DNA of 64,000 nt, taken from the NCBI GenBank assembly GCA_963845755.1, contig CAWJTV010000011.1, positions 1 to 64,000 on the forward strand. Reading direction: 5' to 3'. Both the position numbers and the translations under genes were made by a program. Below are positions 22,138 through 32,177 of the stretch, one piece after another (positions within the stretch are counted from its first letter, which is position 1; the number at the start of each line of letters is the position of its first letter). Below the pieces are notes generated by a model. It did not search any database, was not told the origin of the DNA, and worked only from the letters and a program-made list of their open reading frames with translations. The stretch comes from an uncultured Planctomycetota bacterium. GTDB taxonomy: Bacteria > Planctomycetota > Planctomycetia > Isosphaerales > Isosphaeraceae.

Positions 22138-22758
22138 TCAGGCTGTGCCATCGTCGTACGACATCCACTTGCTGCGGATCCGTCCCAGCCGCCGCTCGAT
22201 CGAGCGATCGGTGCAGCCGTACCGATCGGCGATCTCGTGGTTGGTGTAACCTTCCAGCCGTAAGAGCGCGATCTCGCGCAGCTCCGGATCGGCCAGCGCC
22301 TCTAACCGACGCTCCAGCGCCTCGTTGAGCACGGCCGCTTCGTCCGCTGACGGACCGGACGCTTCCATCTGTTCGAGCGCCCAGTGAGTCGACTCCGCCT
22401 CCTCGCTGCCCGCGATCGTCTGCTCGCGGGACACGTCGCGGCGGTCCCTCCCATGCTTCTTGGCTGTGTTCCGCGCCTTGCGCAGCGTGATCGTCACCAG
22501 CAGGTTCCAGAGCGCATCCCGGTCCGACAGGTCGAACTCGCCCCGCTGCTGCCGCAGGCAGAAGCTCTTGTACATGCTCTGGACCACATCCTCCTCGTCC
22601 TCGCGCGTGCGAATCCGCTGGTTCAGGTTGTTGCGGGCGAGTTCCAGGAGGTCGCGGAAATATCGCCGCCAGATCAAGAGCGCGGCCTGTTCGCGCTCGG
22701 CCGGGTCCTCGGAACGCAGGAGCTGGATCAATCCCGTAACCGAACCGTGGCGAACCAT
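22138..22758 (-). CDS. ECF-type sigma factor (planctomycete kinase-associated)
   Basis: GSVTGLI, DEEDVVQS, LWNLLVTIT, LEGYTNHEIA...RSIERRL. Confidence 0.9.
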   Translation of the reverse strand: MVRHGSVTGLIQLLRSEDPAEREQAALLIWRRYFRDLLELARNNLNQRIRTREDEEDVVQSMYKSFCLRQQRGEFDLSDRDALWNLLVTITLRKARNTAKKHGRDRRDVSREQTIAGSEEAESTHWALEQMEASGPSADEAAVLNEALERRLEALADPELREIALLRLEGYTNHEIADRYGCTDRSIERRLGRIRSKWMSYDDGTA

Positions 22759-23052
22759 GGCGCACAACCCTCGATCTCGAAGTCAGTCCTGGCGAGTCTC
22801 GACGGGCGCACTGGCCCTCTCCTCGTATTCCATCAACACGACACCCGCCAACCCGACAGCCGATCGTCGAATTATCTCAGAAGTGAGACGGGAGATTAAT
22901 CCCCAGAAATCTGCCACGTGAAGAAATCCTGTCGGCTTGGATGGGCGGACGTTGATCGTCTCCCCGGTCGCCAGCCAGAAGGGTCGCGACACTTGACCAG
23001 GCGGGGACCCGGGCCGACTCCCGAACATCCTTCCAGGAGAGGATCGCTTCCG

Positions 23053-24508: not shown

Positions 24509-25681
24509 TCACGCCCGATCATCCAGCAGCCAGAGGGCGATCGGCAGCGCGTTGTGGAACGGCGGATCGGTGCGCGAGGATTCCATCGCGGCGCCCACGC
24601 GGTGCGCGCGGTCGAGCTCGGGCGCCTCGACGAGGCGCGGCAGGCCGCAGAACTCGCGGGTCTCGGCCTCGACGCGAACGGCCGTCGAGTCCGGCGCGGG
24701 CCGGTAGAGCCGGAACGTCTCACCCGCTTGCCCATCGGGTCCCGTCGCGGTGATCGTCACGCCCATCACGCGGGGTTCGGGCCAGGGGTCCGCGTGCGCC
24801 GGCCGGGTCGAGATCCGGACGGAGATGGTCCCCCGCGGCCCGAGGAACTCGGCGTGCAACGTGGTCTCCGACGAGGAGGTGCTTCGTTCCGGCCGGCCCT
24901 GGGGCTTCCAGCCGAGCTGGCCGGCCAGCCAGGCTGCCAGCCAGATGGCGATGCGCGGCGTCCGGTCCGGCTCGCGTGCGAGGGCCTCGATGTGGACCGA
25001 GTCGATCCGGTCCAGGGCCCCGACCGCGCAGGTTGGGTCGAAGCACTGCGCGACCAGCTCGCGCCAACGGGTCAGGCCGAACCAGACGGTGTCGCGACTG
25101 AACGGGCAGACGGCCGGATCCAGGCCCAGACGGACCGCCTCGAGCTCGGCGCCGGGGTCGGGCAGGTCGAGGATCAGGCGCGAGCATTCGTCGGCCAGGG
25201 CGCGGAACAACTCCTCGTTCGACCGCGGGTCGCCGGTCCACCAGAGGACCACGGGCAGTTCGGCCTCGAGCAAGGGCCGCACGGCGCCGGGGACCAGGTC
25301 GATCGCCGCGGGACCGGCCCGGAGCACGATCCGCTCGGAGCACACCTGCGGCAGGCCCGGGGCGGGCAGGTGGCACAGTGCCGAGACCTCGGCCGCGATC
25401 CGACGCTGGGGATCGTCCGACCCGAGCACCACGATCGCCCGGCAGGGGAATCGCGTCGTGACCGTCTCCAGCACCTCGCCCAGCGATTGGGCGTCGCCGT
25501 CGAGTCGCTCGACCACCAGGTTCGCCAGCGCGATCCGCGTGACGTGCGAGCTCTCCGGATCCGGGCCGTCGAGCGGCTCGGCCGCCGGCCCCCAGAGCTT
25601 CGTCAGCTCGGTCTCGATCTCATGGAGCGCGACGGGTATCCCCTGGCCACCGAGGAACGAATCGGTCGTCGAGTCAGGCAT
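24509..25681 (-). CDS. opcA: Glucose-6-phosphate dehydrogenase assembly protein OpcA
   Basis: IETELTKLW, PCRAIVV, VCSERIVL, LPVVLWW, WLAGQLGW. Confidence 0.85.
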   Translation of the reverse strand: MPDSTTDSFLGGQGIPVALHEIETELTKLWGPAAEPLDGPDPESSHVTRIALANLVVERLDGDAQSLGEVLETVTTRFPCRAIVVLGSDDPQRRIAAEVSALCHLPAPGLPQVCSERIVLRAGPAAIDLVPGAVRPLLEAELPVVLWWTGDPRSNEELFRALADECSRLILDLPDPGAELEAVRLGLDPAVCPFSRDTVWFGLTRWRELVAQCFDPTCAVGALDRIDSVHIEALAREPDRTPRIAIWLAAWLAGQLGWKPQGRPERSTSSSETTLHAEFLGPRGTISVRISTRPAHADPWPEPRVMGVTITATGPDGQAGETFRLYRPAPDSTAVRVEAETREFCGLPRLVEAPELDRAHRVGAAMESSRTDPPFHNALPIALWLLDDRA

Positions 25682-25841
25682 CGCTGGGGCCTCCCACTTT
25701 CCCGGATCCCCGCCGCGCGATCTCGCGTCATCCGCACGCGCCGGCTCGACGGGGTTTTCTCGGGAGACCACCAGGATACACTAAAGAGAGTCTCGCTGTA
25801 CCCGGGCGACTGGAATCTCGGGGAGGAGTGCCGAGCCGGGC

Positions 25842-26441
25842 ATGAAGATCACATTTCCTTGCACCCGTTGCGGGAGGTCGCTCAAGGCCAGAGAGAATGC
25901 CGTGGGCCGCACGAGGAAGTGCCCGGTTTGCGCGACCCGCGTGACCTGTCCCGAGCCGGTCTCCGCGGCCCAGCTCGTGGATGCCGATGTCGTGTCAACG
26001 GCGCCGGCCGCCGACGGGCCCCGAGTGAACCCCTACGCAAACCTCGAGGACAGCGGCGCCTATGATGTCGTCGGCGCGGGTACGGGCGCGGATTCCCCGG
26101 TCGAAGCGCGCCGACCTTGTCCCATGTGCGGGGAGACGATCCTGGCATCGGCGGTCAAGTGCCGCTTTTGCGGTGAGGTCCTCGACCCGGCGCTCAAGAA
26201 GGGCAAGAGGTCGCGGAGACGGTTCTCGCGACGCGGCTCCGATTCCCATCCGGCCGCGGCTCGCGACGTGGGCCTTGGCATCCTCCTGGCGGTCCTGGGG
26301 ATCGGCCTGACGGCCTTCTCGTACGCGAGTGCCACCGCGAACAGCAAGGGCCAGGCGGGATTCTGGGTCTATTACGGACTGATCGGGGGCGGGATCGTCG
26401 GGATCATCCGGGGGATCTACGGCATGGTGCGATGGGGCTAG
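25842..26441 (+). CDS. Zinc-ribbon membrane protein
   Basis: CTRC/CPVC and CPMC/CRFC pairs; two C-terminal TM helices. Confidence 0.8.
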   Translation: MKITFPCTRCGRSLKARENAVGRTRKCPVCATRVTCPEPVSAAQLVDADVVSTAPAADGPRVNPYANLEDSGAYDVVGAGTGADSPVEARRPCPMCGETILASAVKCRFCGEVLDPALKKGKRSRRRFSRRGSDSHPAAARDVGLGILLAVLGIGLTAFSYASATANSKGQAGFWVYYGLIGGGIVGIIRGIYGMVRWG

Positions 26442-26544
26442 AATCGGCCCCACGCTCGGGACAGGCCCGCGATCCTGTTCCGGACGGGGAGAGATCCGGG
26501 TATGTTGGAGCAGGATCCAGGAAAACGGGGAGGGTAGCGAGTTC

Positions 26545-27246
26545 ATGCCTGCCGTCGTCTCGTGTCAGTGCGGAGCCCGGGTTCGGGTTCCCGAATCCCC
26601 CACCGGACTGGCGGTCCGCTGCCCGCGGTGTAAGGCCGAGCTGGCCGTGCCGGGCGCCGGACCGATCGTGACATCCGCGCTGGCCGACCCGCAGGGCCTG
26701 GGGGCGACCTGCCCGATCTGCCAGACGGCGATCGGTCGCGACGAGGCGGTCATCACGTGCCCGGTGTGCGACCAGGTGCATCATCGCGAATGCTGGAGCG
26801 ACGTCGGCGGCTGCGCGACCTATGGCTGCGAGAACGCGCCCAAGGGCGAGAAGGCCACGCCGGCGGAGACGCCGCTCTCGGCCTGGGGCGATACCAAGAA
26901 GTGCCCGGCCTGCGGGGAGACGATCAAGGCGATCGCCCTGCGATGCCGCTACTGCGGAACCGATTTCGACACGGTCGATCCACTGAGCCTCAAGGACCTG
27001 CGCGGCCGGGTCGTCAAGGAGGAGCGGCTCCAGGCGACGCGGAGCACCGTGGTCGCGCTGTTCATCCTGAGCCTGCTGGGCTGCCTGGCCCCCATCCTGG
27101 CGATCGTCGCCCCGTGCTATATCCTGCCCAAACGGGCGACGGTGGCCCGGGCCGGGCCCGTCTACCTGATCATGGGCTATTCCGCGATCGGGATTTCGGC
27201 CGTAGAATCGATCTTGTTGCCGTTGTTCTGGCTGTTCTCGCAGTGA
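26545..27246 (+). CDS. Membrane-anchored prokaryotic RING finger protein flanked by Zn ribbons
   Basis: CPICQTAIGRDEAVITCPVCDQVHHRECWSDVGGCATYGC (Prok-RING_1 pattern); C-terminal TMs. Confidence 0.85.
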   Translation: MPAVVSCQCGARVRVPESPTGLAVRCPRCKAELAVPGAGPIVTSALADPQGLGATCPICQTAIGRDEAVITCPVCDQVHHRECWSDVGGCATYGCENAPKGEKATPAETPLSAWGDTKKCPACGETIKAIALRCRYCGTDFDTVDPLSLKDLRGRVVKEERLQATRSTVVALFILSLLGCLAPILAIVAPCYILPKRATVARAGPVYLIMGYSAIGISAVESILLPLFWLFSQ

Positions 27247-27330
27247 TGGTCCGAATTTCATCAACCAGGTCCACAGGAGCGCGGTCGCTCCCCATGGCTC
27301 GAGGCCGGGGAATCTGCCGCGACGAAAGCG

Positions 27331-28639
27331 TTGAGCGCGTCGGCCGGGAGATCGCTGTTGGCCTCGGTACGCGAGGCGGGCACGGCATGTCCTCACTGTA
27401 TGACCGAGGTCGTGGCGGGCGATCCGGTCGTCATCTGCCAGGCATGCGGGACGGTGCATCACCAGAGATGTTGGGACGAGCGGTCGGGGTGCGGCTCGTA
27501 CTCCTGCGCCCCGGCGCGGCGACCCGAGATCGCGGCGGACCCGACCGAACCCGTCCTCCTGATCAGCCAGGCGGAGATCGAACGCGCCATCCCGCTCAGC
27601 GCAGGTGCGCTCCCACTCCGCGCAACCCCGCCCGAGAGCCGGACCTGGAACCCGGCCGTTCCCTCGCCAGCGAGTCGGACGCCGGCCAAGCCCCGGGTCA
27701 GCCGGTTCGCGATCGCCTCGCTGATCTGCGCCCTGGTGGGAATCTTCCCATTCGGCATCGTCACGGGCTTGATTGCCGTCGTGCTGGCCCTGGTGGCGAT
27801 GAGTCAGATCCGCACCCAGGCCCAACGCGGGGTCTGGGTTGCCGCCTCCGGCTTCCTGATGGGGATCGTCGTCTTCGTGGGCTGGGCCGTCGTCCTGGTG
27901 TGGTTCGCCTCGAATCCCGGGCTCACCACCGAGTTTCTCTACTCCGAGCCGCCCCCCGACCTCGCGATGATCCAGGAGCTCGAGCCGCCCCTCCAGCGCG
28001 CCATGCGGGCCAACGTCCTCATCGAGCGGAACGTCGGGATGGCCCTCCTCGGCGGCAAGGCGATCGGATCGGGGGTGATCCTCCGCATCGACCGGGGCCA
28101 GGCCGTGATCGTGACTAACCGCCATGTGGTCGACCCCGCTTTCCCGTCCCGCAACGACAATGCCGCCGAGCGGCTCTCGCAGGTCGGCCGCCTGACCGTC
28201 CGCATGCTCGGCCAGCCCGACTGCGAGGGGCAAGTCGTCTGGATGGCCCCCGGCCAGGTCGACCTGGCCTTGGTCCGCGCCGCCTGCACCCCCACGACCG
28301 GCGCAGGCCGCCTTCTGGCAGAAGGCCCGTCCCATGAAAGTCGGCCAGATCGTCTTTGCCATCGGCAATCCCCACCAGCTTGGCTGGACCCAGACCCAGG
28401 GCGTGATCTCCCAGTTCCGGATCCGGCCCATCGACGATCGCCGGATCCGCGTCATCCAGACCCAGGCGGCCATCAATCAGGGCAACAGCGGCGGCGGCCT
28501 CTACGACCAGGAGGGTTACTGCCTCGGCATCAATACCTGGACCGCCGACAAGCGGATCACCGAGGGGATCGGCTTCGCCATCGTGCTCGACACCCTCCTC
28601 GACCTGTCGCCGGCGCCGCTGGAGATTTCCAAGGAATAA
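27331..28639 (+). CDS. Prok-RING + DUF4190 TM + trypsin-like serine protease fusion (frameshift near 28310)
   Basis: CPHC...CQACGTVHHQRCWDERSGCGSYSC; FAIASLICAL; triad VTNRHVV / DLALV / INQGNSGGGL; true start may be ATG 27246. Confidence 0.82.
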
Positions 28640-28684
28640 TCCTCCCCTTCGTGGGGGAAGGGAAACACGAGGGCCCATGCGACG

Positions 28685-29419
28685 ATGAGCACCGTTCGGC
28701 TGCGTCGGCTCCAGGCGGACTACGACCGGCTGCGGGAGTACGTCAACCGGCACCCCCGGTTGCAACTGATCCAGGCCGAAGGGACGCCGCCGGAGCGCTA
28801 TCAACTGGAGTACCGGATCCGCAGCTTGCGGCAGAAAGACGACGACCTCTCGCTGGTCAAGAGCCACATGGTCGAGATCGCGCTGCCGCTGAACTATCCG
28901 CGGCTGCCGCCGCAGTGCCGGATGCTCACGCCGATCTTCCATCCCAACATCGCCCCCCATGCGATCTGCATCGGCGACCACTGGAGTCCGGGCGAGCCGC
29001 TCTGGTCGATCGTGGCGCGGATCGGGGAGATGATCGCCTACCAGAGCTACAACACCAAGAGCCCGCTCAACGGCGAGGCCGCGCGCTGGGTCGACCAGCA
29101 TCTCGGCGAGCTGCCGCTGGACCCGGTGAGCATGATGCCCGACGATGCAGGAACCGGCGCCGCGACGTTGCCCTCGACCAGTCCCCCGCGTCCGGAACCG
29201 CCGCCCGCGCCCCGCATCGTCCCGCCGCCACCCCCCGTGCCCCCGCCCGCGCCCGCATCGCCGGCCGCCGCCGCGGTCGGACCGGCGCCTCCCGCTCCGG
29301 AAGCCGATCGCCATTTCGCGTGCCCCCAATGCGGCTCGATCGCCCGATGGCGTCCCGAGCTGGTCGGGAAGCAGTTGCGCTGTCCGCGGTGCCACACGGT
29401 GTTCCGATGCCCGGGATGA
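28685..29419 (+). CDS. Ubiquitin-conjugating enzyme E2 (UBC fold) with Pro-rich linker and C-terminal Zn ribbon
   Basis: RLRRLQADY helix 1, LPLNYPRLPP, TPIFHPNIAPHAIC, WSP, SPLNGEAA. Confidence 0.92.
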   Translation: MSTVRLRRLQADYDRLREYVNRHPRLQLIQAEGTPPERYQLEYRIRSLRQKDDDLSLVKSHMVEIALPLNYPRLPPQCRMLTPIFHPNIAPHAICIGDHWSPGEPLWSIVARIGEMIAYQSYNTKSPLNGEAARWVDQHLGELPLDPVSMMPDDAGTGAATLPSTSPPRPEPPPAPRIVPPPPPVPPPAPASPAAAAVGPAPPAPEADRHFACPQCGSIARWRPELVGKQLRCPRCHTVFRCPG

Positions 29420-29904
29420 GGAATGCCATGGGACCGGACCCGTCGAACACGATCGAGAGCGAGCCACCCGACGCCGCACCGAGCCGGGCCCGCCGCCATC
29501 GCGAAGTGCTGGCGGTCGCCTGCGCGGTCGTGATCCTCGCCTTCCTGTTCGTGGAGGTCTCCGGCGGCCGGGTCGCCGTGCGCGGGTTGACCGGCTACCC
29601 CCTCCCTGAAAGCTGCCTGTCGCGGACCTGGTTCGGACTGAAGTGCCCCGGCTGCGGTCTGACCCGCTCGATCGTCCACCTGGCGGAAGGGGACTGGCGG
29701 GCCTCCTGGCGGAGCCACCGGCTCGGTGGTCTCATGGCGGCGGTGATCGTGTTTCAGATCCCCTATCGTCTGATGGCCCTGCGCAGGCCCGATCGACACC
29801 TGATCCCGGATCGCTGGCTGGCCGTCTTCGGGTATGTGCTGATCGGGCTCTTGATCGGGAACTGGTTGATGGATGTGGTGGGCGGCCAGGTCGGCTCGGC
29901 TTGA
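29416..29904 (+). CDS. DUF2752 membrane protein
   Basis: CLSRTWFGLKCPGCGLTRS...GDWRASW; ATGA overlap with the E2 stop. Confidence 0.85.
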   Translation: MRNAMGPDPSNTIESEPPDAAPSRARRHREVLAVACAVVILAFLFVEVSGGRVAVRGLTGYPLPESCLSRTWFGLKCPGCGLTRSIVHLAEGDWRASWRSHRLGGLMAAVIVFQIPYRLMALRRPDRHLIPDRWLAVFGYVLIGLLIGNWLMDVVGGQVGSA

Positions 29905-30015
29905 TGGTCCAGGCTCGGCCGGTTAGCCCTGCGGATCGGGCTTTGGGGCTGACCGTGGGATCGTCGTCACTTAGACTATGCAAGGTGGGTTCTGACTTGC
30001 GAGGCCAGAGAGGGC

Positions 30016-30309
30016 GTGGACATGCTGAGGTACAAGGCAGGCTACAAGTTTGTCGAAGGCGGGGTGCACGCCCAAGTGCTGGACTTCCCCGCGGCCATCA
30101 CTTGCGGCGGCGATCTGGCGGAAGCCCGACAATTGCTCGCCGTGGCGTTGATCGACGTGGCGGAGACCGCGTTGGAGTTGGGACAGCCCCTGCCGATCCC
30201 CGATCCGCTGGTCAACGATGTGGAGATGGACATCGAGGAGCCGATCTATCTCCACCTCAGAGCAAGCTCCGCGGTCGAAGAGGTACCAGCGGGGGTGGTT
30301 GCACCGTGA
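30016..30309 (+). CDS. hicB: HicB-like antitoxin
   Basis: LDFPAAITCGGDLAEARQLL...GQPLPIP. Confidence 0.8.
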   Translation: MDMLRYKAGYKFVEGGVHAQVLDFPAAITCGGDLAEARQLLAVALIDVAETALELGQPLPIPDPLVNDVEMDIEEPIYLHLRASSAVEEVPAGVVAP

Positions 30310-30491
30310 AGCGGACAGACCTTCTCCGCCATCTGCTCGCGCACGGTGGTCGGTTGCTGCGTGAGGGCCGAGGACACTCGGTGTGGGTCAACCCGGCGAA
30401 CGGACAGCAGGGCTCGATCCCGCGTCACCGGTAGATCAACGACTATACCGCTCGCGGGATCTGTCGCCAGTTGGGCGTTCCCGAGCCATGA
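30306..30491 (+). pseudogene. hicA: HicA toxin with internal amber stop
   Basis: VKRTDLLRHL...REGRGHSVWVNP...IPRHR*INDYTARGICRQLGVP; TAG at 30432-30434. Confidence 0.8.
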
Positions 30492-30620: not shown

Positions 30621-32177
30621 ATGCCCGAATTGAACCCCTCCACTGAGACCAACCCCTTGCGGCAGGCGTTGCCGCGGACGCAGGTGCCCGAGCCCTGCGC
30701 CGTGGTGCTCTTCGGCGCCACGGGGGACCTGGCACATCGCAAGTTGGTCCCGGCGCTGTTCCAGCTCGCGCGGGCCGGTCATTTGCCGTCGGAGTGCGCG
30801 ATCGTCGGGTTCGCCCGCCGCGACTGGACCGACGCGCAGCTCCGCGACGAGTACGAGAAGACCCTGGCCAAGGAGGGGGATACTCCCGAATTCCGCGCGG
30901 CCTGGAATCCGTTCGCCAGCCGGCTGTTCTTCGCGTCCGGGACCTTCGACGACCCGGAGGGATACCGGAACCTCAAGGCCACCCTGGAGGAGCTCGACCG
31001 CACGCACGGGACCCGGGGTAACCGCGTCTACTACCTGGCGGTCTCGCCCGAATACTTCGCGACGATCATCAATCGGCTGGGCGAGGCGGGCCTGATCTAC
31101 CCCTGGCAGCAGCAGAACCCCTGGAGCCGGGTGGTCATCGAGAAACCCTTCGGTCATGACCTCGCCAGCGCCCGCCAGTTGAACCTCGACGTCTCGCACG
31201 TGCTCGACGAGTGCCAGGTCTTTCGCATCGACCACTACCTCGGCAAGGAGACGGTGCAGAACATCCTGGCGCTGCGGTTCGGCAACACCATCTATGAGCC
31301 AATCTGGGATCGTCGATATGTCCACTCGGTGCAGGTGACGGTCGCCGAGGAGGTCGGCATGGCCGGCGGCCGGGGCGCGTATTACGACACCGCCGGCACG
31401 ATCCGCGACATGGTGCAGAACCACATGATGCAACTGCTCTGCCTGGTGGCGATGGAGCCCCCGGTGAACCTCTCGGCCGACGCGGTGCGCAACGAGAAGG
31501 TCAAGGTACTCCAGGCCCTGCCGCACTGGCGGCCCGAGGAGGTCGATCGCAACGTCGTCCGCGCCCAGTACACCGCCGGCTCGATCCAGGGATCTGATGT
31601 CCCCGGCTACCTCCAGGAGAAAGGCGTCAACCCCCAGTCGAGGACGGACACGTTCGTCGCGATCCGGCTGGAGCTGAACAACTGGCGGTGGGCCGGCGTG
31701 CCGTTCTTCCTCCGCACCGGCAAGCGGCTCCCCAAGCGCGCGACCGAGATCGCCATCCAGTTCCGACGGCCGCCCACGGGCCTGTTCGAGCCCGAGGGGG
31801 ACGGCCAGTGCGTGGCCAACCAGCTCGTGCTGCGGATCCAGCCCAACGAGGGGGCCAGCCTGGCGTTCCAGGCCAAGATCCCCGGCTCGCGGCGCCGGCT
31901 CCAGGAAGTGCGCATGGATTTTCGCTATGGCGCGGCCTTCGCCGTCCCGCCGCCGGAAGCCTACGAGCGGCTGCTCCTCGACGTCATGCTCGGCGACCAG
32001 TCGCTCTATACCCGCACCGATGAAGTCGACAGCGCCTGGCAGTTCATCACGTCGATCCTGGACGCCTGGAATCGGCCCGAGGCGCCGCCGCCGGCCACCT
32101 ACGTCGCCGGGAGCTGGGGACCTCCGGAAGCCGATGCGCTGATCGTCCAGGATGGCGCCCGATGGCGCAGGCCGTGA
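30621..32177 (+). CDS. zwf: Glucose-6-phosphate 1-dehydrogenase
   Basis: GATGDLA, EKPFG, RIDHYLGKE, RDMVQNH. Confidence 0.97.
   Translation: MPELNPSTETNPLRQALPRTQVPEPCAVVLFGATGDLAHRKLVPALFQLARAGHLPSECAIVGFARRDWTDAQLRDEYEKTLAKEGDTPEFRAAWNPFASRLFFASGTFDDPEGYRNLKATLEELDRTHGTRGNRVYYLAVSPEYFATIINRLGEAGLIYPWQQQNPWSRVVIEKPFGHDLASARQLNLDVSHVLDECQVFRIDHYLGKETVQNILALRFGNTIYEPIWDRRYVHSVQVTVAEEVGMAGGRGAYYDTAGTIRDMVQNHMMQLLCLVAMEPPVNLSADAVRNEKVKVLQALPHWRPEEVDRNVVRAQYTAGSIQGSDVPGYLQEKGVNPQSRTDTFVAIRLELNNWRWAGVPFFLRTGKRLPKRATEIAIQFRRPPTGLFEPEGDGQCVANQLVLRIQPNEGASLAFQAKIPGSRRRLQEVRMDFRYGAAFAVPPPEAYERLLLDVMLGDQSLYTRTDEVDSAWQFITSILDAWNRPEAPPPATYVAGSWGPPEADALIVQDGARWRRP

Follow-up and report, generated by a model that had tools for sequence, protein, structure and literature searches.

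The five genes at 25842-29904 of the window (the whole 64-kb stretch of DNA that was analysed) probably constitute the E2/E3 half of a membrane-associated conjugation system for a ubiquitin-like protein (Ubl), the other half of which would have been moved by genome rearrangement and now lies on another contig of the same genome, C36. By sequence comparison, the cluster is not an orphan and matches the distal half of an operon that is conserved in related loci.

An earlier reading of this DNA, made from the sequence only, had described five co-oriented, closely spaced genes, and five ORFs were indeed found on the + strand (Table 1). The stop codon of the E2 gene (29417-29419) overlaps the start codon of the DUF2752 gene (29416-29418), in agreement with the ATGA coupling noted in that reading. 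All five Pfam families proposed there (UQ_con, Prok-RING_1, Trypsin_2, DUF4190, and DUF2752) were found in the HMM scan, and the interpretation of the genes as a ubiquitin-type E2 and RING module was supported. Hydropathy analysis predicted transmembrane (TM) segments in all partners of the E2, consistent with the claimed membrane anchoring, and none in the E2 itself. Chance does not account for this arrangement: related planctomycete loci repeat the gene order.

Table 1. Coordinates of the E2/RING gene cluster in the window.
Feature	Position	Strand	Basis
Gene 1, Zn-ribbon-TM protein, 199 aa	25842..26441	+	ORF
Gene 2, Zn-ribbon/RING/Zn-ribbon-TM protein, 233 aa	26545..27246	+	ORF and Pfam
Gene 3, RING-TM-protease, two frames as assembled	27331..28639	+	ORFs and Pfam
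Shift from frame 1 to frame 2 within gene 3	approx. 28298..28305	+	Three-frame translation and orthologues
Gene 4, E2 with C-terminal Zn-ribbon	28685..29419	+	ORF and Pfam
Gene 5, DUF2752 membrane protein	29416..29904	+	ORF and Pfam

Judged by its sequence, gene 4 is a classical (UQ_con) E2, for which thioester chemistry is predicted. The UQ_con match had an E value of 4.7e-11 (42.9 bits vs a cut-off of 27), and a profile of 71 E2 orthologues aligned over positions 1-154 to Rad6/UBE2B (1jas_A, E 2.4e-9). The UBC domain (about 28685-29134) is followed by a Pro-rich linker and a type A Zn-ribbon (about 29309-29416). The codon of the putative catalytic Cys95 lies at 28967-28969, and H86, P87, N88, and C95, as well as all four Cys of the ribbon, were invariant in 71/71 sequences; an orphan relative in genome G032 has Tyr in place of the catalytic Cys. 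Gene 5 matched DUF2752 with an E value of 1.5e-16 (60.7 bits vs a cut-off of 27), and its residues P63, C67, C77, C80, G81, L82, R84, Q114, P116, and Y117 were invariant in 57 sequences. DUF2752 was located at most 2 kb downstream of the E2 in 67/74 related loci. The catalytic and metal-binding residues are all intact in the window copies.

Gene 1 encodes an N-terminal type A Zn-ribbon, a type B Zn-ribbon at about residues 92-114, and one TM segment toward the C-terminus (residues 138-166 by hydropathy); related loci also keep this gene upstream of gene 2. Its N-terminal ribbon was homologous to the C-terminal ribbon of the E2 (hhalign 98.9%, E 1.2e-17), and the homology linked the E2 C-terminus with the N-termini of both gene 1 and gene 2 (98.9, 97.9, and 97.9%). 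In Pfam, the matches of genes 1, 2, and 4 to Zn-ribbon families were all under the curated cut-offs. Gene 2 carries, in order, a type A Zn-ribbon, a RING (26701-26832), a type B Zn-ribbon, and two TM segments, and its Prok-RING_1 match reached an E value of 1.2e-11 (44.8 bits vs a cut-off of 29.1). The RING residues C56, C59, C72, C75, H80, C83, C90, and C95 were invariant in 59/59 orthologues, as was W84, and the C4HC3 ligands were also invariant in 62 RING segments, the gene 3 RINGs among them. Gene 2 kept its place in the recurring gene order in 61/71 related loci. It is predicted to be a membrane-anchored E3.

The structural model of the RING (pLDDT 76) gave no Foldseek match at E <= 0.001, and the top rows were PHD fingers with E values of 0.036 (Pygo2) or worse. 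With VIA, the same model matched mostly RING E3 domains, many of them solved with E2s, and the best match was the RING of HRD1 (Z 5.2, rmsd 2.0, 48 residues aligned). These structural matches were weak and did not separate RING from PHD. The RING sequence profile showed weak PHD and RING-H2 matches, and its matches to solved RINGs were not significant. Modelling of the E2-RING complex, a check suggested by the earlier reading, was performed for the gene 2 RING with E2 residues 1-152, RING residues 46-112, and two Zn, together with three controls. The complex scored 0.67 (0.63, 0.67, and 0.69 in the runs) vs 0.01 for the best of the three controls; the mark set for the tool is attained by 116/157 solved complexes and by 2/215 mismatched pairs. 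The partners had a pLDDT of at least 74, and at least 80% of the contacts were common to the runs. The modelled interface comprised residues 2-15, 72-74, and 99-105 of the E2 and the first loop and the W84-containing helix of the RING. In this model, the RING is predicted to sit on the canonical helix-1/L4/L7 face of the E2. The result favors the proposed pairing, but the score may arise because the pair resembles E2-RING complexes already solved from eukaryotes, and not because its two members bind each other.

Gene 3 comprises a RING (27376-27492), a DUF4190/TM region (27709-27891), and a serine protease domain (28066-28639). In Pfam, Prok-RING_1 was matched with an E value of 7.6e-10 (39.0 bits vs a cut-off of 29.1) and DUF4190 with 39.5 bits (cut-off 35), whereas Trypsin_2 scored 37.8 bits in the 3' piece and 20.1 in the 5' piece (cut-off 27.6); no PDZ domain was found. 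A model of the orthologue at locus L039 (pLDDT 83.5) was most similar in Foldseek to DegS without PDZ (2r3u_A, E 1e-15, TMt 0.80), and the top matches of the protease were DegS, DegP, and DegQ. NCBIfam returned the DegP model (E 4.5e-30) and the DegS model (E 8.2e-23), all far under the cut-offs, and the equivalog-level score was not reached (104.9 vs 416 bits). The domain is an HtrA/DegS-like protease with a chymotrypsin fold and a predicted His-Asp-Ser triad, without PDZ. H260, D306, S382, and the RING ligands were at least 90% conserved among orthologues. The topology is ambiguous: there are Lys/Arg-rich loops before and between the TM helices and an acidic stretch after the last one, and the modelled helices of 12, 22, and 33 residues are compatible with a cytoplasmic protease too.

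The earlier reading had treated gene 3 as a single gene, and the frame change was unremarked there. Frame 1 (27331 to about 28300) encodes the RING, the TM segments, and two members of the protease triad (His and Asp); frame 2 (to 28639) encodes the remainder, including the Ser motif, which leaves the triad divided between the frames. Comparison of the three translated frames with two intact orthologues bracketed the shift between '...CTPTT' and 'AQAAFWQKA...'. Because 19/63 conserved test genes (28,675 aligned residues) were split across frames in the same assembly, the frame change is probably an artefact of assembly. At a rate of about one break in every 3-4 kb of coding sequence, error alone would be expected to produce one break in the 4-kb cluster. 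No read sets bridged the frame-change site. Across 80 related loci, gene 3 was frame-split in 10, all of them among the 20 isolate records with the prefix 'MFD', and in none of the other 60. In 54 loci, the orthologue was one uninterrupted ORF of 417-472 aa, and gene 3 was directly upstream of the E2 in 68/78 related loci.

The claimed absence of an E1, a Ubl, and a JAB from the 64 kb was borne out: the ThiF family search and tblastn with the Ubl, E1, and JAB of a relative found none in the window, and all matches were on other contigs. In the remainder of the genome, which the earlier reading had proposed to search, contig C36 carries one co-oriented run of genes for a YukD-like Ubl, an E1 of the ThiF type, a JAB peptidase with a membrane anchor, an FHA protein with multiple TM segments, and a gene 1 paralogue that is a further Zn-ribbon-TM protein. 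These genes were 80, 70, 40, 61, and 52% identical, respectively, to genes of a relative (G009, locus L034) that directly precede its E2/RING module, demonstrating physical linkage in that genome. The C36 orthologues of Ubl, E1, and JAB are consistent with the suggestion that these components act in trans, and the window genes are inferred from this orthology to function together with the C36 genes. A non-canonical E2 working without an E1 is not needed. The five functions (Ubl, E1, E2, JAB, and RING) do not occur together in the window and are complete at the genome level only with C36.

The conserved order is Ubl(YukD-like)-E1-JAB-TM/FHA-ZnR-RING-RING/protease-E2-DUF2752. Linkage was counted in 80 related loci, 48 of which had at least 8.5 kb upstream of the E2, and the full set (Ubl, E1, JAB, FHA, and genes 1-3) was upstream on the same strand in 38/48 planctomycete loci. 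The ten-gene order was kept across records of Isosphaeraceae, Planctomycetaceae, Pirellulales, Thermoguttaceae, and Phycisphaerales. A split form was found in 4/48 loci (L039, L043, L045, and L052). The split is shared by five related species, which retain both halves: the E1 orthologue was kept in 5/5 genomes searched (those of the four loci and of L041; 78-91% identity), in 4 of them on the same contig at a distance of 19-28 kb. The split arrangement occurred with an intact gene 3 (436-471 aa) in L039, L041, L042, and L048. The two-locus split is particular to the genome studied here and a few relatives. The Ubl C-terminus is Ala-Gly, not Gly-Gly; most of 40 Ubl ORFs contained the motif ...LRLQPEITAG, followed by a stop (L066, L069, L074, and L075) or by a variable tail, and a few lacked it, among them L049, L079, and L081, whose assemblies contain frame breaks. 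Contig C34 of the genome studied here encodes a second Ubl-E2-E1-JAB system of a different kind. Both this system and the larger operon were absent from the earlier reading. No flanking family was conserved in more than 12/80 related loci, the recurrent ones being zwf/opcA, and no substrate, kinase, unfoldase, or other role-indicating conserved neighbour was found in the flanks of the 80 loci.

We infer the following biochemical steps, topology, substrates, and physiological role. JAB would trim the variable Ubl tail and expose the conserved ...LRLQPEITAG end, and the Ubl would be adenylated by the E1 and then handed to Cys95 of the E2. The cytosolic RINGs of genes 2 and 3 would bind the helix-1/loop-4/loop-7 face of the E2 and act as membrane-tethered E3s, the Ubl being discharged onto targets at the inner membrane face. 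The Zn-ribbon that the E2 shares with genes 1 and 2 would probably serve to dock all three at one site, and the FHA protein may recruit phosphorylated partners. In gene 3, the RING would be joined via TM helices to the DegS-like protease domain, which is most likely periplasm-facing, so that the system may respond to the envelope state. Of the two roles suggested by the earlier reading, envelope sensing is indirectly supported by the DegS-like fold of the protease domain. For ERAD-like quality control there is no direct support: the operon showed neither an unfoldase nor a proteasome gene, and no flanking family was conserved in more than 12/80 loci.

A different biological role, compatible with the same biochemistry, would be that of an anti-phage or conflict system, in which the Ubl tags an invader protein or arms a protease effector, as in Bil, CBASS-Cap2, and Bub. 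All three bacterial E1/E2 families described as characterised in the available text of PMC11601603 conjugate proteins, two of them (CBASS and Bil) in phage defence, and conflict systems contain Ubl/E1/E2/RING/JAB sets according to the accessible part of PMC7159879. The distribution is patchy, the window-type E2 being present in 5/40 relatives and in 26/401 sampled Planctomycetota genomes, the present one included (E <= 1e-40), and the trypsin-like domain could be an effector. However, PADLOC gave no match for the E2 (including its E2, Cap2, and Bil models), DUF2752, Ubl, FHA protein, or C36 Zn-ribbon protein; genes 1 and 2 returned chance-level unrelated rows (E 0.005-0.007), and the E1 (E1-E2 1.6e-14, BilD 1.7e-7) and JAB (3.2e-5) matched at the generic family level only. 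The claim that the genes are not of the soluble anti-phage type thus holds in that they do not belong to the catalogued CBASS Cap2 or Bil systems. The ten-gene order kept from Isosphaeraceae to Phycisphaerales, the absence of a recurrent flanking family other than zwf/opcA, and the non-enzymatic parts, all membrane proteins and not nuclease-type or pore-type effectors, also argue against a conflict role, which we regard as unlikely.

Two further explanations concern the integrity of the cluster and the nature of its RINGs. If the cluster were a decaying remnant, without function since its separation from E1, Ubl, and JAB, gene 3 would carry a genuine, inactivating frameshift; the frame change, the location of the halves on separate contigs, and a genome of the same genus (G001), in which the window E2 query returned only the other E2 type, fit this idea. 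The frequency of split test genes, the confinement of gene 3 splits to 'MFD' records, the intact gene 3 and conserved E1 of other split-form species, and the intact catalytic and metal-binding residues of the window copy make it highly improbable. Alternatively, the RING-like domains may not be E3s and may serve as peptide- or lipid-binding treble-clef modules for a membrane protease, with the E2 working independently of them or through a different partner. PHD fingers, which were also the top Foldseek matches, have the same C4HC3 ligand pattern, the profile matches to solved RINGs were not significant, and one of the RINGs occurs in a fusion with a protease. Other prokaryotic treble-clef domains were reportedly proposed by Burroughs et al. 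in 2011 as partners of membrane peptidases. Against this, both domains exceeded the Prok-RING_1 cut-off, the VIA list was mostly RING E3s headed by HRD1, the RING contacted the canonical face of the E2 in the complex model, and a RING gene was directly upstream of the E2 in 68/78 loci; there is little chance that this alternative is correct.

Compared with known systems, the E2/E3 module and its C36 half most resemble the prokaryotic YukD-like Ubl/E1/E2/JAB/RING operons that Burroughs, Iyer and Aravind (2011, Mol Biosyst 7:2261) are said to have predicted, in work that is reportedly also the source of Pfam Prok-RING_1. The component set (YukD-like Ubl, ThiF E1, UQ_con-type E2, JAB, and Prok-RING_1) matches. 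A 2014 review, in the part available, names Planctomycetes as carriers of "related", "uncharacterized" operons, citing that work (PMC4197634). This kind of operon is already known, having been predicted in Planctomycetes in 2011, and is uncharacterised. The same review, in the available part of PMC4197634, describes an operon-like cluster of Caldiarchaeum subterraneum that unites five core functions (Nunoura et al. 2011). The ubiquitin/E1/E2/RING/Rpn11 cluster of that organism resembles the planctomycete system in its five core functions, classical E2, and small RING. Its proteins are reportedly soluble and the system is archaeal. The planctomycete system differs in its YukD-like Ubl with an Ala-Gly end, its pair of RING proteins, the TM anchors of JAB and of each RING, and the presence of an FHA protein, DUF2752, and a fused protease. 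Bil, type II CBASS (Cap2), and Bub are bacterial E1/E2/Ubl/peptidase operons that conjugate proteins, and no RING component is mentioned for them in the available text of PMC11601603; in contrast, the system described here has RINGs, a eukaryote-type UQ_con E2, and accessory proteins that are all membrane-bound. HRD1 and PA-TM-RING ligases such as RNF13, which was also among the VIA matches, likewise combine a cytosolic RING, a membrane anchor, and another domain across the membrane. The parallel with these eukaryotic membrane RING E3s would be one of analogy only: the domain here is small with a low Z, the order is reversed relative to PA-TM-RING, and no homology was shown for the membrane or luminal parts. 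Gene 3 resembles DegS/HtrA in its protease fold, catalytic triad, and membrane anchor N-terminal to the protease, and differs from them in having no PDZ and in carrying an N-terminal RING and a DUF4190 TM region.

All five Pfam families proposed for the cluster in the sequence-only reading (UQ_con, Prok-RING_1, Trypsin_2, DUF4190, and DUF2752) were recovered in an HMM scan, with the Zn-ribbon families scoring below the cut-offs. The start of the DUF2752 gene overlaps the stop of the E2 gene as ATGA, which agrees with the claimed coupling of the two genes. The cluster, in a window with a G+C content of ~67%, is flanked by an OpcA gene and a glucose-6-phosphate dehydrogenase gene, and the dehydrogenase neighbor recurs downstream in eight related loci. 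The small ORF that follows the DUF2752 gene and the next ORF were read as a putative HicB/HicA-like pair. On the opposite strand, 3 kb upstream of the cluster, is a gene for an ECF sigma factor, which was not seen as a conserved neighbor across the related loci. In a promoter scan of 25500-30400, no sigma-70-like site was found, and the six terminator-like sites in this interval are all on the − strand. Gene 3 and the E2 gene are 45 bases apart, and a G+C-rich inverted repeat in this gap was scored by the terminator scan solely as a − strand terminator-like site.

Positions of the cluster genes, their surroundings, and related genes elsewhere. Positions without a prefix are those of the window; L011 and L012 are loci on contig C34 and L038 a locus on contig C36 of the source genome, L036 is a locus of the relative G032, and L044 and L046 are related E2 loci.
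Feature	Position	Strand	Match or remark
ECF sigma factor gene	22138-22767	−	Sigma70_ECF, E 3.4e-23
OpcA gene	24509-25771	−	flanks cluster on upstream side
Gene 1	25842-26441	+	ORF; Zn-ribbon families below Pfam cut-offs
Gene 2	26545-27246	+	ORF; Pfam Prok-RING_1, E 1.2e-11; Zn-ribbon families below cut-offs
Gene 3	27331-28639	+	Pfam Prok-RING_1 (E 7.6e-10), DUF4190, Trypsin_2; spread over two frames
Inverted repeat	28641-28661		7-9 pairs
Gene 4 (E2)	28685-29419	+	Pfam UQ_con, E 4.7e-11; Zn-ribbon families below cut-offs
Gene 5	29416-29904	+	Pfam DUF2752, E 1.5e-16
Small ORF	30016-30309		between DUF2752 and dehydrogenase genes; no Pfam match
Glucose-6-phosphate dehydrogenase gene	30621-32177	+	flanks cluster downstream
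Ubl and E1 in one open frame	L038:6700-8448	+	contig C36
C34 YukD-like Ubl	L011:10321-10620	−
C34 E2	L011:9297-10340	−
C34 ThiF E1	L011:7890-9212	−
C34 JAB	L011:6485-8095	−
C34 M48 peptidase	L011:5058-6182	−
Third Prok-RING_1 gene	L012:7122-8021	+	contig C34; 299 aa, RING C-terminal, E 7.4e-9
Orphan E2-Zn-ribbon relative	L036:7865-8665	−	40% identity; Tyr replaces catalytic Cys
Run-on Ubl ORF	L044:2067-2753
Run-on Ubl ORF	L046:2860-3561

A profile of 71 E2 orthologues aligned over the whole UBC domain to Rad6/UBE2B (1jas_A, E 2.4e-9) and also to 121 further solved E2 sequences. Residues H86, P87, N88, and C95 and the four cysteines of the C-terminal Zn-ribbon are invariant in these orthologues, and no TM segment was predicted in the E2. 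In the gene 2 RING, C56, C59, C72, C75, H80, C83, C90, C95, and W84 are invariant in 59 sequences, and the same nine positions stay invariant when three gene 3 RINGs are added. Because Foldseek with the whole gene 3 model matched the protease domain alone, the RING was modeled separately (pLDDT 76). With this model, VIA-align returned mostly RING E3 domains, the best being the HRD1 RING (Z 5.2, rmsd 2.0 over 48 residues; all Z values were low for such a search), and Foldseek returned no match at E <= 0.001, its top rows being PHD fingers. The gene 2 profile searched against solved structures gave PHD, C1, and RING-H2 rows only, all of them non-significant. Judged from the model, the assigned fold class is probably right, but structure does not separate RING from PHD.

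A complex of E2 residues 1-152, gene 2 RING residues 46-112, and two Zn was then modeled. The RING was placed on the E2 with a score of 0.67 (runs 0.63, 0.67, and 0.69) versus 0.01 for the best of three controls, with a partner pLDDT of at least 74 and at least 80% of the contacts common to the runs. When the tool was calibrated, with other alignments than those used here and no riding ligand, 116 of 157 solved complexes reached the mark, as did 2 of 215 mismatched pairs. The predicted contacts comprise E2 residues 2-15, 72-74, and 99-105, which form the canonical helix-1/L4/L7 face, and RING residues 57-61, 80-88, 91-94, and 98-101. The passing score of the model may be due to likeness to solved eukaryotic complexes.

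In the sequence-only reading, the E1, Ubl, and JAB partners would act in trans or else the E2 would work non-canonically. Five ThiF-family loci were found in the source genome, none of them on the contig of the window. In the relative G009 (locus L034), four genes on the same strand lead into the orthologous module; they encode a YukD-like Ubl, a ThiF E1, a JAB peptidase that has a TM helix, and a multi-TM protein with an FHA domain at its C-terminal end. The best tblastn matches of these proteins in the source genome form one co-oriented run on contig C36 (identities of 80% for the Ubl, 70% for the E1, 40% for the JAB, and 61% for the TM/FHA protein), which is followed by a gene 1 paralogue (52% identity); YukD, ThiF, JAB, and FHA were confirmed there by Pfam. 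Because this run consists of the best matches of module-linked genes, the three partners are present in trans, and sequence comparison identifies them as orthologues of genes physically linked to the E2/RING module elsewhere. These results support the core of the sequence-only reading, namely an E2 with RING E3s at the membrane and an E1 in trans. On C36, a single open frame covers the Ubl and the E1, without a stop from ...EITAG to the E1, and an in-frame TTG at L038 7255 could start the E1 separately. A Ubl-E1 fusion precursor is possible; the single frame may also be an artifact because of the frameshift rate of the assembly.

Related loci were sought by a pattern scan of one genome per species, based on five aligned E2s of the window type. 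This yielded 204 tblastn-confirmed stretches, of which the best 80 were kept for comparison. These best 80 are all titled Planctomycetota (Isosphaeraceae, Planctomycetaceae, Pirellulales, Thermoguttaceae, and Phycisphaerales). Nine query families were placed on them by tblastn and counted, and the common order was Ubl, (gene-1-like), E1, JAB, TM/FHA, gene 1, gene 2, gene 3, E2, DUF2752. Upstream content was counted in the 48 loci whose sequence extends 8.5 kb or more upstream of the E2. All seven upstream families are present on the same strand in 38 of them; four show the split form seen in the window (L039, L043, L045, and L052), four have the E2 without genes 1-3 (L056, L062, L063, and L083), one lacks only Ubl and E1, at the stretch edge (L040), and one lacks FHA, gene 1, and gene 2 (L078). 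Where there was room for them, gene 3 lies directly upstream of the E2 in 68 of 78 loci and gene 2 holds its upstream place in 61 of 71, and DUF2752 lies within 2 kb downstream of the E2 in 67 of 74. The remaining flanking families each occur in at most 12 of the 80 loci, and the recurrent ones are the zwf/opcA neighbors of close relatives; none of them adds a kinase, an unfoldase, or a proteasome gene to the system. Among cultured carriers, the chromosome of Lacipirellula limnantheis I41 (L085) carries all ten genes, and Aeoliella straminimaris ICT_H6.2 (L107) has FHA to DUF2752 before its contig ends. The Ubl ORF of some loci (L044 and L046) continues into a Zn-ribbon/TM protein like that of gene 1 (228-233 aa); other loci have a separate gene-1-like ORF between Ubl and E1. 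The run-on ORFs may be Ubl-fusion precursors, and both records come from assemblies with frame breaks.

The C36 E1 was used as a query on the genomes of five split-form loci (L039, L043, L045, L052, and L041). All five keep an E1 orthologue (78-91% identity). Four carry it at a distance of 19-28 kb from the E2 module on a shared contig, and in three of those four it is oriented opposite to the module. This shows that the halves of the operon can part in a genome with both retained, and this retention after separation argues against decay. In a sample of 400 further Planctomycetota genomes, evenly drawn and at least 85% complete, the window-type E2 was detected at E <= 1e-40 in 25 (26 of 401 including the source genome). 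The operon is widespread in the phylum yet patchy.

Frame 1 of gene 3 encodes the RING, the TM region, and the protease residues His and Asp, and frame 2 takes over from about 28300 to the stop at 28639; single-frame orthologues (L034 and L037) bracket the shift to about 28298-28305. To gauge assembly quality, 103 intact ORFs of at least 250 aa from 260 kb of the relative G021 were used as queries, and the 63 whose best match in the source genome had at least 45% identity were scored. Over 28,675 aligned residues, 19 of these 63 conserved genes are broken into pieces in different frames that are colinear and abut. At this rate a break occurs about every 3-4 kb of coding sequence, so that assembly error by itself would be expected to cause one in this cluster of 4 kb. 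The same caveat applies to every apparent pseudogene or fusion in the genome. A gene 3 split across frames is seen in 10 of the 80 related loci, all within the 20 records with an 'MFD' isolate prefix, and in none of the 60 others; L039, L041, L042, and L048 each have gene 3 as one ORF, 436-471 aa long. Programmed frameshifting was considered and dropped, since the orthologues are single-frame and the assembly is full of such breaks. In public sequencing runs the share of sampled words was at most 0.16, and short contigs from four runs included one that stops at 28298 and none that bridges 28298-28305. The break in gene 3 is probably, if unproven, an assembly artifact.

One Zn-ribbon type is common to the C terminus of the E2 and the N termini of genes 1 and 2 (hhalign 98.9%, 97.9%, and 97.9%), and a second type, recognized by eye and by sequence cross-matches, is common to genes 1 and 2. 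The model of the L039 gene 3 orthologue (pLDDT 83.5) matched DegS without its PDZ domain (2r3u_A, E 1e-15, TMt 0.80), as well as DegP and DegQ, in Foldseek; the NCBIfam DegP and DegS models matched the protease far below their cut-offs, and no PDZ domain was found in gene 3. Lys/Arg-rich stretches precede the TM region and lie between the helices, and an acidic stretch follows the last helix. HtrA proteases are usually extracytoplasmic. This usual location and the charged stretches favor a periplasmic protease domain; the modeled helices, of 12, 22, and 33 residues, do not settle the topology. Most of 40 Ubl ORFs contain the conserved motif ...LRLQPEITAG. In L066, L069, L074, and L075 the ORF stops right after the motif, and the other motif-bearing ORFs go on into a variable tail; the motif is absent from a few, including L049, L079, and L081, whose assemblies have frame breaks. 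As read from these ORFs, the pattern is that expected for a peptidase-matured modifier. In DUF2752, P63, C67, C77, C80, G81, L82, R84, Q114, P116, and Y117 are invariant in 57 sequences.

The source genome also carries a second UQ_con gene on contig C34, within a second, different Ubl system (L011:5058-10620, − strand). The E2 type of this system occurs in 22 of 24 same-family relatives and is far commoner than the window type, found in 5 of 40 relatives searched. The third Prok-RING_1 gene lies ~24 kb from the C34 system. The orphan E2 relative in G032 is surrounded by unrelated genes, read as putative molybdenum-cofactor and sugar-isomerase-like genes. This weak-match, cysteine-less type was found in all four genomes of the genus of G032 within the phylum sample, and it accounts for 4 of the 25 sampled genomes with a window-type E2.

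The proposed mechanism builds on the domain identities, the conserved catalytic and ligand residues, the ten-gene order, the half in trans, and the modeled canonical E2-RING interface. The Ubl would be matured by the JAB, activated by the E1, and then charged onto Cys95 of the E2, with the RINGs of genes 2 and 3 acting as membrane-tethered E3s. The common Zn-ribbon would co-localize the E2 with genes 1 and 2, the cytosolic RING of gene 3 would be joined to a probably periplasmic DegS-like domain, and the FHA protein may recruit phosphorylated partners. With modest confidence, a role at the membrane or envelope is favored over phage defense. PADLOC gave no match for the E2, Ubl, DUF2752, FHA protein, or C36 Zn-ribbon protein, and only unrelated rows for genes 1 and 2 (E 0.005-0.007). 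A bolder but unlikely reading makes gene 3 a transmembrane signaling E3 and Ubl tagging a means of envelope homeostasis: by sensing or cleaving an envelope signal, the periplasmic DegS-like domain would switch on the cytosolic RING, and the Zn-ribbon-docked E2 would then transfer the YukD-like Ubl to proteins of the membrane or of envelope biogenesis, perhaps to phospho-proteins that the FHA partner holds. If true, eukaryotic membrane RING ligases would have a bacterial counterpart in gene 3, and ubiquitin-type tagging would serve envelope homeostasis, not phage defense or proteasomal degradation.

In the abstract of Burroughs et al. 2011, prokaryotic RING E3s are said to act with E1s, E2s, JAB peptidases, and YukD-like Ubls. 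Operons that combine an E2 of eukaryote type with RING E3s, E1, Ubl, and JAB were predicted in bacteria in 2011, and in the literature covered none has an experimental study. Their kind is already known; the cluster in the window is half of a larger operon of this kind and is not near-unique. Passages of a 2014 review describe operons related to the Caldiarchaeum ubiquitin/E1/E2/RING/Rpn11 cluster in Actinobacteria, Planctomycetes, and Acidobacteria and, citing Burroughs et al. 2011, call them uncharacterized and sporadic (PMC4197634). Parts of a 2020 paper from the same group place complete Ubl/E1/E2/RING/JAB sets inside conflict systems (PMC7159879). A full-text literature search, with most subscription journals outside it, found no experimental study or description of the ten-gene planctomycete operon. 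The present analysis adds the definition of a strongly conserved, ten-gene, membrane-bound form across Planctomycetota, with separable halves that are both retained, a testable E2-RING interface, a testable mature Ubl end (...EITAG), and cultured carriers. If the proposal is true, there would be RING-dependent ubiquitin-type tagging at a bacterial membrane, with a bearing on the origin of the eukaryotic ubiquitin system and its membrane ligases. In the passages of a 2024 preprint that treat them, CBASS-Cap2, Bil, and Bub are listed as the families for which protein conjugation in bacteria has been shown (PMC11601603).
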